Shown in pieces: positions 5,751-58,856 of a stretch of 64,000 nt of DNA. Origin of the DNA: Patescibacteria group bacterium. Lineage in GTDB: Bacteria > Patescibacteriota > Patescibacteriia > UBA2591 > UBA6264. The stretch's first letter is position 1, and every line of letters begins with the position of its first letter. Under the pieces are notes generated by a model. The model made no database searches. It worked only from the letters and a program-made list of their open reading frames with translations, and was not told the origin of the DNA. The DNA lies in assembly GCA_021735685.1 (NCBI GenBank), contig JAIPGN010000004.1:959-64958 (forward strand), given 5' to 3'. Both the position numbers and the translations under genes were made by a program.

Positions 5751-6383
5751 ATGTCAAAAGCGAGTCAAAAAATAACAAAAATAATCGAAAATATTTTAAG
5801 AGTTAGTTTGGTTTTTGCGATTATTTTAGCTATTTTAGAAGGGAGTTGGGAAATTGTTTTCATCTCTCTTTTAACTTTTGTTTTATCTTATTTTCCTTTT
5901 TGGCTTAAGAATAAATATCAGTTAGAGATTCCTTTAGATTTTGAATTATTAATTGTCTTATTTGTCTACGCCAGTTTATTTTTGGGAGAGATTAAACAAT
6001 TTTATGATTTGTTTTGGTGGTGGGACATTATGCTTCATACTGTTTCTGGCTTTGCTTTTGGTTGTTTGGGCTTTATTGTTTTATTTTTTCTTAATAAAAC
6101 TAATAAAATTAAAGCCAATCCTTTTTGGATTTGTCTTTTTGCTTTATCTTTTGCTTCCTTAATTGCCGTAACTTGGGAAATATTTGAATTTTTTATGGAT
6201 CAAGTTTTGGCTACTAATATGCAAAAAAGTTTATTTAATACTATGGTTGATTTAATGGTTGGTGTTGTGGGAGCAACAGTTGCAGTTTGGTCCGGGTTTA
6301 ATTTTATACAGGGCAAACAAAAATCATATTTAAGTAAATTAATTACTTTTTTGGTTGAAAAAAATTCTCACCTTAGTGATTAG
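5751..6383 (+). CDS. Polytopic membrane protein (hypothetical)
   Basis: 210 aa with 5-6 hydrophobic helices. Confidence 0.5.
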   Translation: MSKASQKITKIIENILRVSLVFAIILAILEGSWEIVFISLLTFVLSYFPFWLKNKYQLEIPLDFELLIVLFVYASLFLGEIKQFYDLFWWWDIMLHTVSGFAFGCLGFIVLFFLNKTNKIKANPFWICLFALSFASLIAVTWEIFEFFMDQVLATNMQKSLFNTMVDLMVGVVGATVAVWSGFNFIQGKQKSYLSKLITFLVEKNSHLSD

Positions 6384-6474
6384 ATTAATGTAGATTGATA
6401 ATAAATATTAACAAAAAAGAGTACAATAAATATGGCTAAATCATAGTCAACGCTAAACCCCTTCTCTAAAAAAT

Positions 6475-6499
6475 ATGTACGAGGTTCGACCTCGTACAT
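6475..6499. repeat. 25-bp perfect palindrome ATGTACGAGGT-TCG-ACCTCGTACAT (copy 1 of 3)
   Basis: Read directly from the sequence: 11-bp stem, 3-nt loop, intergenic. Confidence 0.9.
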
Positions 6500-6526
6500 T
6501 TACCCCTAAAACATCTTAACCAAGCG

Positions 6527-6551
6527 ATGTACGAGGTTCGACCTCGTACAT
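6527..6551. repeat. 25-bp perfect palindrome ATGTACGAGGTTCGACCTCGTACAT (copy 2 of 3)
   Basis: Identical to the copy at 6475 and lies 27 bp downstream of it. The flanks TTACCCCTAA and TTAGGGGATA are also inverted relative to each other. Confidence 0.9.
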
Positions 6552-6573
6552 TAGGGGATAGATAAAACAAAAA

Positions 6574-6596
6574 AACCGCCCTAAAGACGGTCTTTT
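6574..6596 (-). terminator. Rho-independent terminator for csp (usable in both directions)
   Basis: ACCGCC-ctaaa-GACGGT hairpin with an A-run on one side and a T-run on the other. Confidence 0.5.
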
Positions 6597-6618
6597 TGTT
6601 TTTATAGAAAAAGTGTTG

Positions 6619-6816
6619 CTAAGCTTTTTTAACTTGTGTAGCCGCAGGTCCTTTTGGGGTTTCATTAACCTCAAAAGTAACAGCGTCACCTTCTCTTAAG
6701 TCACTGAAATCGCAATCAACCAATTCGCTGGCGTGAAAGAATAAATCTTTCTCGCTACCTTCTTGGGTGATAAAACCGAAGTTTTTATCAGTCAACTTTT
6801 TGACGGTTCCTTCCAT
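6619..6816 (-). CDS. cspA: Cold-shock protein (CspA family)
   Basis: 65 aa; GTVKKLTDKNFGFITQEGSEKDLFFH is the cold-shock-domain RNP motif region. Confidence 0.9.
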   Translation of the reverse strand: MEGTVKKLTDKNFGFITQEGSEKDLFFHASELVDCDFSDLREGDAVTFEVNETPKGPAATQVKKA

Positions 6817-9857: not shown

Positions 9858-9901
9858 AGCTATAAGTTCTTTAAAAAAAGAAAAAAAGAAAGGAGGATAA
9901 A

Positions 9902-10318
9902 ATGAAAAATATATTTTTCATTTTACTCGTAGTATTTTTTGTCTTTGCTTCCGCTGTGGAAGTAGAGGCAGAAAATGTTTTTTCTTCTGAGGTCGTTTAC
10001 GGCCCAGAAGAAATCCAGGGATCCCTCTCTTGGGATTACTTGGGGGCGGGGTGGCTTGCCCACTTAGGAGCCAAAACCGAGGGAGAACTATCCCTTGGTT
10101 TGGGGATTAATCTCCCAGAACTTGAATTTTTTGATTACAATAGCTTTGAGGCTATTATGGTCAATTTTCAAGCCGCCGGAGGCCTCGTCTTTGTAAAAGA
10201 CGGGGTAGCAGAAGATTACTTTTTTATCTACCCAGTCGTTCAGATAAGCGACTGGGAGGAAAGAATTTTTTTCCGAAGCGAGCAAGTGGCTCGCTTTACT
10301 AAAGAAAGTTTTGGTTGA
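9902..10318 (+). CDS. Small secreted protein (hypothetical)
   Basis: Signal peptide MKNIFFILLVVFFVFASAVEVEA. GC-richer than neighbours, with C-ending codons. Strong RBS. Confidence 0.55.
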   Translation: MKNIFFILLVVFFVFASAVEVEAENVFSSEVVYGPEEIQGSLSWDYLGAGWLAHLGAKTEGELSLGLGINLPELEFFDYNSFEAIMVNFQAAGGLVFVKDGVAEDYFFIYPVVQISDWEERIFFRSEQVARFTKESFG

Positions 10319-10551
10319 TGGGATACCACTAACCAAGTTTTCTTTAATCATGAGGATCATTCTTTTGGATTGTTTTGTCAGACTCATCATAACGGCAAGT
10401 TTTCATTTTCTTTTTTTGGGCCCCTTTATAAGAACAGGGTGTCTAAAAAAATTACGATCGAGGTCTTTCTCGGTATTAATCCCGAGAAAGAAAAAATGGG
10501 GGGAGCGAGATTTAATCTCGTTGTTCCTTAGAACTTAGAAAATCATTTTTT

Positions 10552-50614: not shown

Positions 50615-51892
50615 TTAAACGACCTTTGTGGTTTTAAATAATTTTTGAATTCTCTTGCGACTTTCAGTAATAATTTTTTCTTCATCTTTAATTCGATAAT
50701 CACGCATAATAGCTTGACCATTACAGAAAACATCCGAAATTAAACCCGCCGAACTTTGAGCGTAAATTAAATTAGACAAAAGATCGTGATTGGGAATAAA
50801 ATTTAAATGGTTTAAGTCAATTAAGATAAAGTCCGCTAGTTTTCCTATTTTTAATTCTCCAGCATTGAGATTAAAAGCTTGAGCGGCATTTTTAGTAGCA
50901 AGGTTGAAAACTTCCTGAACCGGTAAAAGGCTAGAATTTTCATTTTGTGCCCTTTGCAATAAAGAAGCAAATTTCATTTCCGACCAAAGATTTAAACTGT
51001 TATTTGAGGCAGATCCGTCTGTGCCCAAGCAAATATTGATTCCCGCTTCCTTTAATTGAGAATAAGGGAAAATTCCAGAGCCTAATTTCATGTTAGAGCA
51101 AGGACTATAAACAATTTGGCATTTTTTTTCTTTTAATATTTCAATTTCTTTTTTAGAGAGCCAGATTGCATGCACCAAAAGGGTTTGAGGGGCCAATAGA
51201 CCAATTTCGTTTAAATATTCAACTGGTCTCATTTGATTTGTTTTAAGACAATCTTCAACCTCTTTTTTGGTTTCTGAGCAATGAATATGAATTGGCAATT
51301 TGTTTCTCTGACTAAAATTTTTAGCCCAGGTTAAATTTTCTAAAGAAAGGGTGTAAATAGAATGAGGGGCTAAAGTTAGGGAAAGCAAACTGGTTTCTTT
51401 TTTACTTAAAATTTCCCATTTTTTTTGCACTTCTTCTTTACTCCCCCCGTTTGATTGAGAATCTATTAAAAAAAGACCTAAATGGGCCCTTAAACCCATT
51501 TCTTGGACAGCTAACCAAGAAGCGTCAACTTGCCAATACATATCATTAAAACAAGTGGTGCCAGCTTTAATCATCTTCAAGGCTGCTAATTTAGTAGCCC
51601 AATAAATATCTTCTGAACCTAATTGAGCTTCTTTGGGCCATATTTTTTTCTCTAGCCAATCTTTTAATGGTAAATCATCAGCATAACCCTGCAAAAAAGA
51701 CATTGCTGCGTGAGTGTGACTATTAATTAAGCCCGGTAAAATAGCCTTTTTTGCTTGACAATCAATAACTAAATCAGCTTTTGTCTTAATTTCTTTGGTT
51801 ATTTCCACTATGCTTTCGTTTTCTATATAAAAATCCTTTAAAGAGTGGTCTAAGTCAACAGCATTTTTAATTAAAATAGTTCTTTTTTTCAT
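50615..51892 (-). CDS. Amidohydrolase-superfamily nucleoside/base deaminase (MtaD or guanine-deaminase-like)
   Basis: Metal-binding HxH (LPGLINSHTHAAMS), a downstream HxHxxE-type region, and DG near the C-terminus; 425 aa. Confidence 0.7.
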   Translation of the reverse strand: MKKRTILIKNAVDLDHSLKDFYIENESIVEITKEIKTKADLVIDCQAKKAILPGLINSHTHAAMSFLQGYADDLPLKDWLEKKIWPKEAQLGSEDIYWATKLAALKMIKAGTTCFNDMYWQVDASWLAVQEMGLRAHLGLFLIDSQSNGGSKEEVQKKWEILSKKETSLLSLTLAPHSIYTLSLENLTWAKNFSQRNKLPIHIHCSETKKEVEDCLKTNQMRPVEYLNEIGLLAPQTLLVHAIWLSKKEIEILKEKKCQIVYSPCSNMKLGSGIFPYSQLKEAGINICLGTDGSASNNSLNLWSEMKFASLLQRAQNENSSLLPVQEVFNLATKNAAQAFNLNAGELKIGKLADFILIDLNHLNFIPNHDLLSNLIYAQSSAGLISDVFCNGQAIMRDYRIKDEEKIITESRKRIQKLFKTTKVV

Positions 51893-52032
51893 TTCTTTCC
51901 CTTGGTTAAATCCATAATTGTACGAAAGGTGTCTTTATTCTCTAAATAATCTTCAATAGTTTCAAAGGGAACTCTTTTCATAAAATTATAATTAAAATTG
52001 CTCTTTTCTACTATATTATACTTTAATTTTGA

Positions 52033-52118
52033 GAAAATAAAAAGTGGTGCTTGCCTGGCGTCAAAAAAGGAAATCCTTTCTATCCACCGCCAGAACCGAA
52101 ATTCTGGGCAAGCACCAT
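52033..52118 (-). other. Compound hairpin plus U-tract (second of two tandem terminators, or a cis-regulatory leader element)
   Basis: On the minus strand: GGTGCTTGCC...TGGCG...AAAGGA-tt-TCCTTT...CGCCA-GGCAAGCACC, then TTTTTATTTT. Confidence 0.4.
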
Positions 52119-52140
52119 TAATAAAATAACATAATTATAA

Positions 52141-52178
52141 AAATAAAGCAAGTTAAAAGGGAGGCGCAAGCGCCTCCC
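52141..52178 (-). terminator. Strong rho-independent terminator on the minus strand
   Basis: GGGAGGCG-caag-CGCCTCCC (8-bp all-G/C stem) followed on the minus strand by TTTTAACTTGCTTTATTTTT. Confidence 0.7.
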
Positions 52179-52180
52179 AA

Positions 52181-52475
52181 AGTCTTAATACATCAGGAGT
52201 TTGCCGTAACAACGGCATTCTCCTTTCTTTGATGGGATGTTTGGCGGCTCCGAAGTGAAGCCGTCAACATACTCGGGAACTTGCCCATTACTAGGGCAAG
52301 TTTGTCCCCTGAAGTAAACATCCCCGTTAGACCCCAGAGGCTTAACCTCCTGAAGTCTAACTCCCAAGTAAAAAATTTTTTCCTTCCCGTTTTGGGACAA
52401 AGGAAAAACAATTTCTTGATTTTTTTGATAGGCCCGCAGGGCCGATCTGGTTCGAGAAATGATATTAAAAACCAT
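52181..52475 (-). other. GC-rich, helix-dense ~300-nt segment. Candidate structured ncRNA, or alternatively a 96-aa ORF with atypical codon usage.
   Basis: GC is far above the local ~33%. Several perfect helices: GGGATGTTT...AAACATCCC enclosing CTTGCCC-tagtaat-GGGCAAG; and AGGAG-aat-GCCGT-tgtt-ACGGC-aaa-CTCCT. The ORF has an AAGGAG RBS but uses CTG, CGG, GCC and GGG codons that are rare elsewhere in the window. Confidence 0.3.
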
Positions 52476-52575
52476 TTTTGTCTCCTTTTTTCTTTATTTT
52501 TTAAAACAAAAAGAAAAAACGATGGGTAGTTTCAATTTCATCTCTGCCTCCTTTCACGTTATTATTTTTAGTATA

Positions 52576-53835
52576 TTACTTATTTTCTTTTTTGTCAAGC
52601 TTAACACTATTCCCCACTACCCAGCCGGTAGCCCAGCAAACCTGCAAATTATACCCTCCGGTAGGTCCGTTTAGGTCTAAAATTTCTCCAGCTAAATAAA
52701 GATTATCAATTATTTTAGATTGCATAGTTAAAGGATTAACCTCTTTCAAGTCTACGCCTCCAGCGGTAATAATCGCTTTTTGATAACCATCTAATTTTTT
52801 AATTTTCAATTTAAACTCTTTGCATAAATGCAAAATTATCTTTCTTTCTTCTTTGGTTAAAGAGTGAACCTTTTTGCTTAAAGGAATTTGAGAAAGTTGA
52901 AGAATGACGGGAATTAATTTTTGAGGCAACAAATCATCTAAACTATTTTTAAAAAATCGGTTGCTTTTTTTAGCAAAGTCTTTTTGAATTCTTTGATCTA
53001 ATTGCGAAAAGCTTAAAGCTGGTTTAAGGTCAATAGACAAACAAAGGTCTGCCTTTTTTTCTAATTCTTGGCCTATTCTTGAGCTTAAATCTAAAATAAT
53101 GGGTCCACTCATTCCTTTATGAGTAAAAAGAGCTTCTCCAAAACGAGAATCTATTTTTTTGTTTTTTTGGTATAAACTAATCTCTACATTTTTTAAACTT
53201 AAACCCTCTAATTGGGAGAGAAAATTTTCCGCACAAATTAAAGGAGTTAAGGCTGGCCTTAGTTTATTAATTCGATGCCCCATTTTTTTTAACCAAAAAT
53301 AACCGTCTCCAGTGGATCCGGTTTGAGGATAAGATTTACCGCCAGTTGCTATTAAAAAATTATTAGCTTTAATTTCCTGGCCATCTTCTAAGATTATTTT
53401 CTCAATTCTTCTTTTCTTAATTACTATTTTTTTAACTGGGCTATTTGTTTTAACTTCTACACCCGACTTCTTTAAGTTTTTGATCAAAACCCGACAAACG
53501 TTTTGCGCCGAATTACTTTGGGGAAAAATGCGTCCTCCTCTTTCTGTTTTTAATCGCAAACCCTTTTTTTCAAAAAAATCAATAATTTCTATTAAGCCAA
53601 ATTGATGTAAAGCCGAAAAAAGAAAATTGCCTTGAGGGCCAAATTCTTTGACAAAATCTCTGGGCTGGTTATCTTGATGAGCTAAATTACAACGCCCCTT
53701 GCCGGTTAACAAAAGTTTAATTCCTAATTTTCTATTTTTTTCAAGCAAAATTACTTTAGAACCCTTGGCTGCAGCCCGCCCAGCAGCCATCATTCCAGCT
53801 GGTCCCCCACCAATTACCACTAAATTATATTTCAT
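52576..53835 (-). CDS. HI0933-family flavoprotein (NAD(FAD)-utilising dehydrogenase, BaiN-like)
   Basis: N-terminal FAD motif YNLVVIGGGPAGMMAAGRAA with a GGG..GR pattern; 419 aa. Confidence 0.85.
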   Translation of the reverse strand: MKYNLVVIGGGPAGMMAAGRAAAKGSKVILLEKNRKLGIKLLLTGKGRCNLAHQDNQPRDFVKEFGPQGNFLFSALHQFGLIEIIDFFEKKGLRLKTERGGRIFPQSNSAQNVCRVLIKNLKKSGVEVKTNSPVKKIVIKKRRIEKIILEDGQEIKANNFLIATGGKSYPQTGSTGDGYFWLKKMGHRINKLRPALTPLICAENFLSQLEGLSLKNVEISLYQKNKKIDSRFGEALFTHKGMSGPIILDLSSRIGQELEKKADLCLSIDLKPALSFSQLDQRIQKDFAKKSNRFFKNSLDDLLPQKLIPVILQLSQIPLSKKVHSLTKEERKIILHLCKEFKLKIKKLDGYQKAIITAGGVDLKEVNPLTMQSKIIDNLYLAGEILDLNGPTGGYNLQVCWATGWVVGNSVKLDKKENK

Positions 53836-57994: not shown

Positions 57995-58019
57995 ATTAAA
58001 CCGTTAAGAAAACTAAAAA

Positions 58020-58052
58020 TACTTAGGAGCTCGGCTCCTAAGTATTTTTTTT
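58020..58052 (+). terminator. Rho-independent terminator of uppP. It is the palindrome TACTTAGGAGC-TCG-GCTCCTAAGTA plus T8, the reverse-complement twin of the repeat at 33357.
   Basis: 11-bp stem followed directly by TTTTTTTT. Confidence 0.8.
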
Positions 58053-58456
58053 GTTTAGACTTCGTATAAAAAATCAGGAATCCTTAATCCCAAAAATTAG
58101 AATATTATTAAAACTTTCTCTAACAGTAACAAGAAGGGGCCAAAAGGCCCCGAAAATTTTAAGTTTTCCTCCTTTGAAAGAAAAAGAAAAACTTTCTCTT
58201 ACCTTTGGCTTTAAGCCAAAGGTTGAGATTGACCTTTGGTTTGTAAGAAAGCCAAGGTCTCTTCAAGATTTTCATACAACCTCCTTTCTGTATTTATCAT
58301 CATATCAATTTTAAGCTCTTTTGTCAATCTCCTGTTTTTATAAAAAACAAATCAAGAAAATTTATTTTTTTAAATAATTAAAACAAATTTAATTTTCGGT
58401 ATATATGATTTGCATATTGTAAATAAAAAAGGGATGAATTTAATCCTTCACCCCTA

Positions 58457-58699
58457 TCACCTTAACAATAATAATATAATTATTGTTAAGAATTCAACAA
58501 ACATCAAAAAATAAAAAACTTTTTGATGTTTATTGAAAGATGATGCTTCCGTGGCGCTAATTCCCAAAAGCGCCAAAAAACCAGCAACAACAAACCCCAT
58601 TGGAGGAGCGTCATTGCTTAACGCTAATACTATCATTATAGCCGTTAAGGCTGTACAAATGATAGCAAAAAGACGTAAAAAAAAGACCCTTTTCTTCAT
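58457..58699 (-). CDS. Small membrane protein (hypothetical)
   Basis: 80 aa, two TM helices. Confidence 0.3.
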   Translation of the reverse strand: MKKRVFFLRLFAIICTALTAIMIVLALSNDAPPMGFVVAGFLALLGISATEASSFNKHQKVFYFLMFVEFLTIIILLLLR

Positions 58700-58856
58700 G
58701 TTCGCCTCCCTTGATTGCTTGTAGTATAGTAAAAAATAGACATTTTGTCAATAAAAAATTCTCAACAATCTAAGAAAATTGCTGAGAAAATTTTTAATTA
58801 AAAAATTATTTTCTTGAGCTTGATCATCTTCTTTTGGATTTCCAAACCCACTTAAA

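Follow-up and report, generated by a model that had tools for sequence, protein, structure and literature searches.

A probable clade-restricted small-protein gene with a leader open reading frame and a hairpin-rich mRNA in a Patescibacteria genome

Control of a gene by an upstream open reading frame (uORF), acting through a hairpin that sequesters the ribosome-binding site (RBS), is known from the erm and cat leader peptides. Dual-function RNAs such as RNAIII/hld, SgrS/SgrT and SR1/SR1P encode a small protein and also act as structured RNA, and type I toxin mRNAs of the hok/mok/sok kind are compact folded mRNAs whose main start becomes accessible only through a leader open reading frame (ORF). 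Other bacterial uORFs open structures that sequester an RBS, an example being the small intergenic ORF by which translation of a Mg2+ transporter is promoted in Salmonella (PMC8092293). The locus described here shares features with each of these systems. It lies in a 64,000-nt stretch of DNA (positions 1-64000, henceforth referred to as the window) from Patescibacteria group bacterium (assembly GCA_021735685.1, contig JAIPGN010000004.1) and centres on a 96-codon ORF, henceforth ORF96, at 52185-52475 on the minus strand. An initial annotation of this DNA had favoured an unassigned structured non-coding RNA (ncRNA), with a horizontally acquired small protein as the alternative. Taken as a whole, the locus is probably best explained as an independently transcribed small-protein gene carried on a hairpin-rich mRNA with a leader uORF.

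ORF96 and its protein family

ORF96 was present where the initial annotation had placed it, with an AAGGAG RBS six bases 5′ of the ATG. The gene is already annotated as "hypothetical", and its family within the Candidate Phyla Radiation (CPR) clade is unnamed. A word-indexed protein search returned only the query itself, a GenBank "hypothetical protein" of Patescibacteria group bacterium. The hint that ORF96 might be a non-gene, which this search first gave, was overturned by an exhaustive HMMER search and by synteny. The productive route was to use neighbouring genes as queries, including a concatenated query of the flavoprotein C-terminal half and a 293-amino-acid protein, and then to fetch the contigs. 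In a collection of 5.8 billion proteins, relatives of the neighbouring amidohydrolase were found at 97%, 82% and 81% identity, and relatives of the flavoprotein at 87-91% over the C-terminal half. The contigs of the relatives share a gene order of exonuclease VII subunits, flavoprotein, a called ORF of 99-103 codons, the 293-amino-acid gene, amidohydrolase, Band 7 and TruB.

In the slot flanked by the HI0933-like flavoprotein and the amidohydrolase operon, at least seven related CPR lineages carry a homologous ORF of 94-106 codons. The ORF is intact in the window and at the related loci labelled L041, L051, L054, L055, L056 and L059, and is cut by the contig end in L053. Comparison of ORF96 with the syntenic loci by tblastn gave E values of 1.8e-18 (L051), 1.4e-17 (L053) and 6e-8 (L041). 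Ten small relatives of 94-157 amino acids were identified by phmmer among 1.84 billion representatives (E 2.4e-13 to 7.5e-4), and the four that were looked up occupy the same slot in more distant genomes. Two long repeat proteins also matched by phmmer, P0246 and P0249, were discarded as spurious multi-repeat matches upon reading their sequences. Neither synteny nor an nhmmer match was found at 31 flavoprotein-anchored loci of GTDB species representatives (≤ 60% identity). Back-translated ORF96 patterns returned nothing from JGI metagenome contigs or viral contigs, and an amidohydrolase search of metagenome contigs was likewise negative. As judged from these searches, the family is restricted to one Parcubacteria/Patescibacteria clade.

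The small ORFs could be aligned over their full length at 31-47% protein identity, and their DNA is barely alignable. Family motifs include Q.I..P, PLG..G..F.G, (V/I)DG.T and a C-terminal YG.L..Y, and nine residues are invariant (I5, P25, P46, L47, F55, G57, D71, G72 and G91). When eight sequences were aligned by codon, nucleotide identity was highest at position 2 and lowest at position 3 (2 > 1 > 3) in 28 of 28 pairs, with third positions at ~0.25-0.56, near saturation. The ratio of nonsynonymous to synonymous substitution rates (dN/dS) was 0.19-0.52 where dS was computable, i.e. not saturated. One reading frame is open over 94-106 codons in seven AT-rich lineages, and each intact ORF carries a GGAG-type RBS before its start and a stop codon directly before the terminator. 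AlphaFold2, supplied with an 11-sequence alignment, returned a model of six strands and one helix with a mean predicted local distance difference test score of 88.8, no segment below 50, and a predicted template modelling score of 0.77.

ORF96 was counted as a real gene because its homologues are syntenic, conservation is at the codon level and the predicted fold is confident. On this comparative evidence the segment is very probably a genuine protein-coding gene, and the 96-amino-acid ORF that the initial annotation had offered as an alternative belongs to a conserved small-protein family, as indicated by homologues, alignment, phmmer and AlphaFold2. The product, presumably translated, would be a soluble, beta-rich protein of ~100 residues from a fast-evolving family. 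No significant family or fold match was obtained for ORF96 in Pfam, NCBIfam, PHROGs, PADLOC or PDB sequences, or with Foldseek against PDB and BFVD. A resemblance to WYL/Sm-like proteins (PafBC, BrxR and a phage WYL protein; Foldseek probability 0.2-0.69, E > 0.6) was insignificant and is kept as a lead only.

Expression signals and folding of the transcript

A sigma-70-type promoter, TTGACA-17-TATACT, was detected by pattern scan (11/12 matches) at 52570-52598 on the minus strand, within the last codons of the flavoprotein gene. Little or no variation was seen in TTGAC and the -10 box among the relatives. A mini-ORF of 15 codons (52494-52541, minus strand), the putative uORF, encodes the leader peptide MKLKLPIVFSFCFKK and has its own RBS, GAAAGGAGG, at 52547-52555. 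An equivalent uORF with a AAAGGAGG-type RBS and a K-x-P motif was observed at 8 of 8 homologous loci, with lengths from 8 to more than 20 codons, and the leader peptides of the relatives have M-x-(I/L)-(L/M)-K-x-P in common. An RBS-sequestering hairpin is predicted at 52476-52520 on the minus strand, in which the 3′ half of the uORF, rich in U and C, pairs with an A-rich stretch and the AAGGAG of the main RBS (52482-52487). Pairing of this kind was predicted at all eight loci; the RBS core is paired in the minimum free energy (MFE) structure, or has an unpaired probability of ~0-0.2, in six of them, and partial pairing of the core is predicted for the window.

The small gene ends in an intrinsic terminator (52150-52178, minus strand) that starts 7 nt past the stop codon and contains an 8-bp GC-rich stem, a CUUG loop and a U-run. 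This terminator, GGGAGGCG-cttg-CGCCTCCC, had been noted in the initial annotation and was independently recovered by pattern scan; the loop is CUUG on the transcribed strand, the "caag" given earlier being the plus strand, and the U-run is present but short (UUUUAACUU). A GC-rich hairpin and U-run directly follow the stop codon in all homologues with sequence there. At the level of the sequences compared, promoter, uORF, RBS hairpin and terminator are conserved. In L055 and L056 the small-gene promoter (CTTGACATAAAATAAAAGAATTGTTA) is duplicated, with a ~120-nt insert between the copies, ~120-250 nt upstream of the small ORF.

The arrangement resembles the uORF and leader-peptide systems introduced above in that a short, presumably strongly ribosome-bound ORF lies just upstream, its 3′ half pairs with the main RBS and its stop codon falls in or near the hairpin loop, here at eight loci. 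It differs from them in several respects. No inducing signal or arrest motif was identified at this locus, where only the shared leader-peptide motif is conserved; the predicted hairpin is A/U-rich and weak; and the gene that would be controlled encodes a small protein of no assigned function, not a transporter or resistance protein. That the uORF couples or gates translation of the main ORF is, on the predicted pairing, an evenly balanced possibility.

The GC-rich minus-strand island that had been reported between the flavoprotein gene and the next gene was borne out by GC contents of 0.43-0.475 at the locus compared to ~0.30-0.36 nearby (200-nt windows), and by a value of 0.51 at 52201-52350, the second highest for any 150 nt across the 64 kb. 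The helices listed with it were all located on the minus strand, namely GGGATGTTT...AAACATCCC around CTTGCCC-tagtaat-GGGCAAG and GGCTTCACTTCGGAGCC, together with AGGAG-aat-GCCGT-tgtt-ACGGC-aaa-CTCCT. Exceptional RNA structure had been suspected there, and the shuffle z-scores agree. The MFE of 52150-52480 (minus strand) was -134.3 kcal/mol compared to -90.0 ± 4.4 kcal/mol for 100 dinucleotide shuffles (z = -10.0), and the locus is among the two most extreme of 213 tiles (300 nt, both strands scored).

The whole family shares the excess of mRNA folding. Each of the seven complete coding sequences (CDSs) was more stably folded than its dinucleotide shuffles and its synonymous-codon shuffles (z between -1.8 and -6.8). 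The respective dinucleotide/synonymous values were -6.8/-6.2 for the window, -6.4/-6.1 for L059, -4.5/-3.4 for L054, -4.1/-3.8 for L041, -2.9/-3.5 for L055, -2.6/-1.9 for L056 and -2.0/-1.8 for L051. Homologous transcripts gave z of -3.2 to -7.4, and eight 291-nt pieces of flanking genes, included as controls, gave z of -0.8 to +1.7.

Compensatory changes were observed in two hairpins of the coding region. Hairpin C (52326-52361, minus strand) spans codons V39-N50 with the motif ..EV.PL.. and contains 16 pairs; L053 retains 15 of these and shows four double compensatory changes, and L054 retains 12. Its covariation score of 0.292, compared to 0.199 for shuffled alignments, was matched by 1 of 500 shuffles. 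The C-terminal hairpin (52195-52224, minus strand; AGGAG..TGCCGT-tgtt-ACGGCA..CTCCT) underlies the motif C/H-x-Y-G, and its inner 6-bp stem is retained with double changes in L054, L056 and L059. Here 74% of cells were paired compared to 62% after shuffling, and the covariation score of 0.424 (0.225 shuffled) was reached by 0 of 500 shuffles. In this hairpin a change of His CAT to Arg CGT is matched by a synonymous change of Tyr TAT to TAC. Both covarying hairpins exceed shuffled and slid controls, and on balance we lean towards mRNA structure being under selection.

The expression signals and folding would fit together as follows. A near-consensus sigma-70 promoter in the 3′ end of the flavoprotein gene would start a transcript of ~410 nt, on which the strongly ribosome-bound 15-codon uORF would be translated first. 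Ribosomes translating or terminating on the uORF would open the RBS hairpin, thereby coupling or gating the 96-codon ORF. The body of the mRNA would form a chain of stable local hairpins closed by the intrinsic terminator, serving most likely in RNase protection or translation tuning. A role for the hairpins as stabilisers is proposed tentatively.

Several points weigh against this explanation or parts of it. Its support comes from sequence comparison and prediction. The protein has no functional annotation or structural match (best Foldseek E = 0.9 for PDB and 0.66 for BFVD). RNA pairing could account for part of the amino-acid conservation, since the conserved motifs EEV.PL, H-N-Y-G and P..GEE lie on hairpin arms. 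A/U-rich, low-complexity sequence makes up the RBS hairpin, and the predicted occupancy of this hairpin in the window is partial only. The covariation analysis used only eight DNA sequences, whose relatedness inflates the shuffle statistics, and the hairpins tested were derived from the window sequence and are hence favoured over slid controls. In distant members, most other helices of the window have no counterpart at the corresponding alignment columns, so that the folding is to a large extent specific to lineages and does not reflect a common architecture. Finally, the antisense strand folds about equally well in several members, so that strand-specific selection at the RNA level is not proven.

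The folding data also bear on a rival explanation, in which the transcript is a dual-function RNA that encodes the small protein and itself acts as a structured RNA, for instance as a protein-binding scaffold or a base-pairing regulator; its conserved hairpins would in that case be functional elements and not stabilisers. Excess folding that survives synonymous-codon shuffling in 7/7 members and is as extreme as anything in the window, covariation in two hairpins, and compensation at amino-acid-changing as well as synonymous sites (the His to Arg change with its Tyr partner) all speak for it. As in RNAIII/hld, SgrS/SgrT and SR1/SR1P, a small ORF is found in an over-structured transcript with some helices kept by compensation. 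However, ORF96 fills nearly the whole transcript; no separate regulatory domain, seed or target is evident, and no loop motif or single-stranded seed stands out as conserved. Conservation of the helices within the family is partial, most of those in the window being lost in distant members. A single RNA architecture for the family was rejected, the RNAalifold consensus of the codon alignment amounting to just -7 kcal/mol. An unrelated small ORF in the window also shares the hairpin-chain habit, which points to a general expression or stability strategy. A dual-function RNA is thus considered unlikely, and a small-protein gene on a folded mRNA is preferred.

Divergence of the gene and remaining alternatives

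The gene is a sharp divergence island within conserved flanks, as measured by sequence comparison. ORF96 is 31% identical to its L041 counterpart, with proportions of synonymous (pS) and nonsynonymous (pN) differences of 0.88 and 0.44, whereas the neighbouring proteins of L041 are 82-97% identical to those of the window with pS of 0.39-0.50 and pN of 0.04-0.09. In the L054 comparison, pS was 0.29 in the flank and 0.69 in the ORF. The flanking DNA on both sides is 86-94% identical compared to 60-71% within the ORF, and the similarity ranking of the ORFs departs from that of the flanks. Three metagenome contigs end in or beside the small gene (L038, L053 and L054), which is consistent with population-level variability. 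At the position occupied in the window by the ORF96 3′ end and terminator, the contig of L038, the 81% relative, stops (L038:1-45) in another GC-rich sequence that resembles a terminator, GGAGCGGATCGCCGCCGTCGGTGCCCTCTTTCTTTTTTTT. The divergence could have arisen by allele exchange within the clade, by local hypermutation or by compensatory turnover forced by RNA pairing. A repeat, a miniature inverted-repeat transposable element or the template of a diversity-generating retroelement was considered and rejected, there being no second copy in the window.

The initial annotation had read the unusual codons of ORF96 as a sign of horizontal acquisition, and an atypical, recently acquired foreign ORF is a second rival explanation. 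The CDS has a GC content of 0.44 and a third-position GC content (GC3) of 0.45, compared to a GC3 of 0.21-0.26 in neighbouring genes. The divergence from L041 and the discordant similarity order of ORF and flanks would also be compatible with a related lineage having supplied a divergent replacement allele. In its simple form, acquisition is nevertheless unsupported: in every relative found, down to a flank identity of 57-67%, the gene lies in one and the same slot and is accompanied there by the same promoter, uORF and terminator. The family is confined to this clade, no mobile-element genes or repeats flank the gene, and the window holds no second copy. Most family members also have an ordinary GC3 of 0.27-0.35. 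Within ORF96, predicted paired positions have a GC3 of 0.54 and unpaired ones 0.25, the latter matching the neighbouring genes, although any predicted stem will be GC-rich by construction. The flagged CTG, CGG, GCC, GGG and CCG codons lie in predicted stems. Because the GC excess is limited to the stems, the "foreign" codon usage is explained without transfer; raised GC and unusual codons would be a by-product of selection for G-C stem pairs. A foreign origin is accordingly very unlikely, and what may remain is an exchange of alleles between members of the clade, as opposed to the arrival of a gene from outside it.

A rather unlikely extension is that the gene is a hypervariable cassette in which RNA pairing and protein sequence co-evolve, the coding-region hairpins forcing paired amino-acid replacements, and that hairpin-chain small genes form a distinct CPR class, with the ORF at 9902-10318 described below as a second example. 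If true, this would drive, or preserve through recombination, alleles of 31-47% identity inside flanks of ~90% identity.

The reading that the initial annotation had favoured, a stand-alone structured ncRNA (a divergent RNase P RNA, transfer-messenger RNA (tmRNA), signal recognition particle (SRP) RNA or 6S RNA, or a new class) with the ORF as a by-product of GC-rich sequence, has fared worse. As in the housekeeping RNAs of Rfam, the locus is a GC-rich, helix-dense island ending in a terminator. The folding z of -10, the three frames open across the island, typical of GC-rich RNA in an AT-rich genome, and the word-indexed search that found the query alone were in keeping with such an RNA. The initial annotation had named three observations that would refute the RNA, namely absence of an Rfam match, codon-level in place of compensatory conservation, and a detected peptide, and the first two were made here. 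Rfam 15, whose families cover RNase P, tmRNA, SRP, 6S, riboswitches and large ncRNAs (OLE, ROOL, GOLLD, raiA and HEARO), gave no match at the gathering score in the entire 64-kb window and none on four homologous loci. Even at E ≤ 10, the region 51900-52700 returned only noise, with best scores far below gathering, and ARAGORN detected no tRNA or tmRNA in the window. Covarying helices without a reading-frame signal, the generic mark of an ncRNA, were not found, for some hairpins covary but three-base periodicity is strict. The locus is conserved at the codon level and not the helix level: third positions are least conserved in every pair, dN/dS is below 1, and a protein that can be aligned is encoded by DNA that nearly cannot. 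One frame stays open through 94-106 codons in seven divergent loci with start, RBS and stop conserved, and the predicted protein fold is confident. A stand-alone ncRNA is therefore already largely refuted and retains a very low probability.

A type I toxin-antitoxin-like module in the hok/mok style, in which a long-lived folded mRNA would express a toxic small protein through a coupled leader ORF, is extremely unlikely despite a compact and very structured mRNA, a leader ORF directly upstream, a predicted sequestered main RBS and predicted pairing of start and stop regions (the 5′ and 3′ ends) in several members, as the 94-106-amino-acid product is a predicted soluble, beta-rich globular domain with no hydrophobic helix rather than a small hydrophobic membrane peptide, neither an antisense RNA nor a promoter for one was identified at the locus, PADLOC gave the family nothing beyond one isolated weak match, and the gene is chromosomal, fixed, single-copy and syntenic.

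Neighbouring elements and meaning of the locus

Immediately downstream of the small gene lies a conserved Y-shaped (three-way-junction) element of 71 nt, GGTGCTTGCC...GGCAAGCACC, at 52046-52116 (within 52034-52118) on the minus strand, with a folding z of -5.7. Its closing stem is GC-rich and 10 bp long, one of its two arms is capped by UUCG, and a U-run follows. Copies were found at L038:120-202, L054:754-835, L055:4426-4507, L056:4418-4499 and L059:1932-2013, and the element is absent from L041 and L051. Three pairs show double changes, and the closing stem carries compensatory changes (GC to AU at column pair 6/71). A promoter-like TTGCTT-N16-19-TAT..T is conserved upstream. No Rfam match was obtained for the element, and a search of 283 kb of related loci with its covariance model turned up no additional copy. 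Within this intergenic stretch the element is a better candidate for a stand-alone structured RNA than the 96-codon segment. It precedes the amidohydrolase operon and may represent a small RNA, or else simply a terminator or attenuator of elaborate form.

Next to it, a 30-codon ORF, MKRVPFETIEDYLENKDTFRTIMDLTKGKK (51889-51981, minus strand), overlaps the amidohydrolase start (ATGA) and is a remnant. At this position the relatives have a gene of 288-293 amino acids with no Pfam match, of which the window has lost ~790 bp of the interior; L059 is also without this gene. On the other side of the flavoprotein gene, the gap to the exonuclease VII small subunit holds an unannotated 212-amino-acid ORF in the window, L052 and L053, and a Y1 (IS200-like) transposase gene in L055 (L055:1671-2360).

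Elsewhere in the window, a second stand-alone small ORF of 138 amino acids was observed at 9902-10318 on the plus strand (region 9880-10330), with a signal-peptide-like N-terminus, its own TTGACA promoter, a AAAGGAGG site and no Pfam match. It forms ~12 strong hairpins in a chain (MFE -190 kcal/mol; z = -10.3 for dinucleotide and -7.8 for synonymous shuffles), with a GC3 of 0.47 at paired and 0.26 at unpaired positions. GC-raised hairpin-chain CDSs may thus be a habit of the small genes of this genome. A structured intergenic stretch between a BacA/UppP-like gene and an 80-amino-acid membrane ORF (58000-58800, both strands) gave no Rfam match and a z of -5.5 for 58000-58460 on the plus strand. 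Among the several hairpins of this stretch is a perfect one of 16 bp that immediately follows the upstream gene. Strong structure was also observed at 6301-6675 (tile z = -8.7, minus strand), downstream of a 65-amino-acid cold-shock-like gene (6619-6816, minus strand) and between convergent genes, where it may represent a long 3′ untranslated region or a bidirectional terminator.

No major concept is changed by these results. They indicate that a GC-rich, helix-dense island ending in a terminator in an AT-rich CPR genome need not be an ncRNA, the island here probably being a CDS with GC-rich mRNA stems, and they uncovered a conserved candidate for a small structured RNA beside it. The locus defines a clade-restricted family of ~100-residue proteins with a confident predicted fold for which no relatives are detectable. 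It would also provide a natural example of overlapping constraints, in which a protein and the hairpins of its mRNA are both conserved and compensation includes amino-acid replacements.

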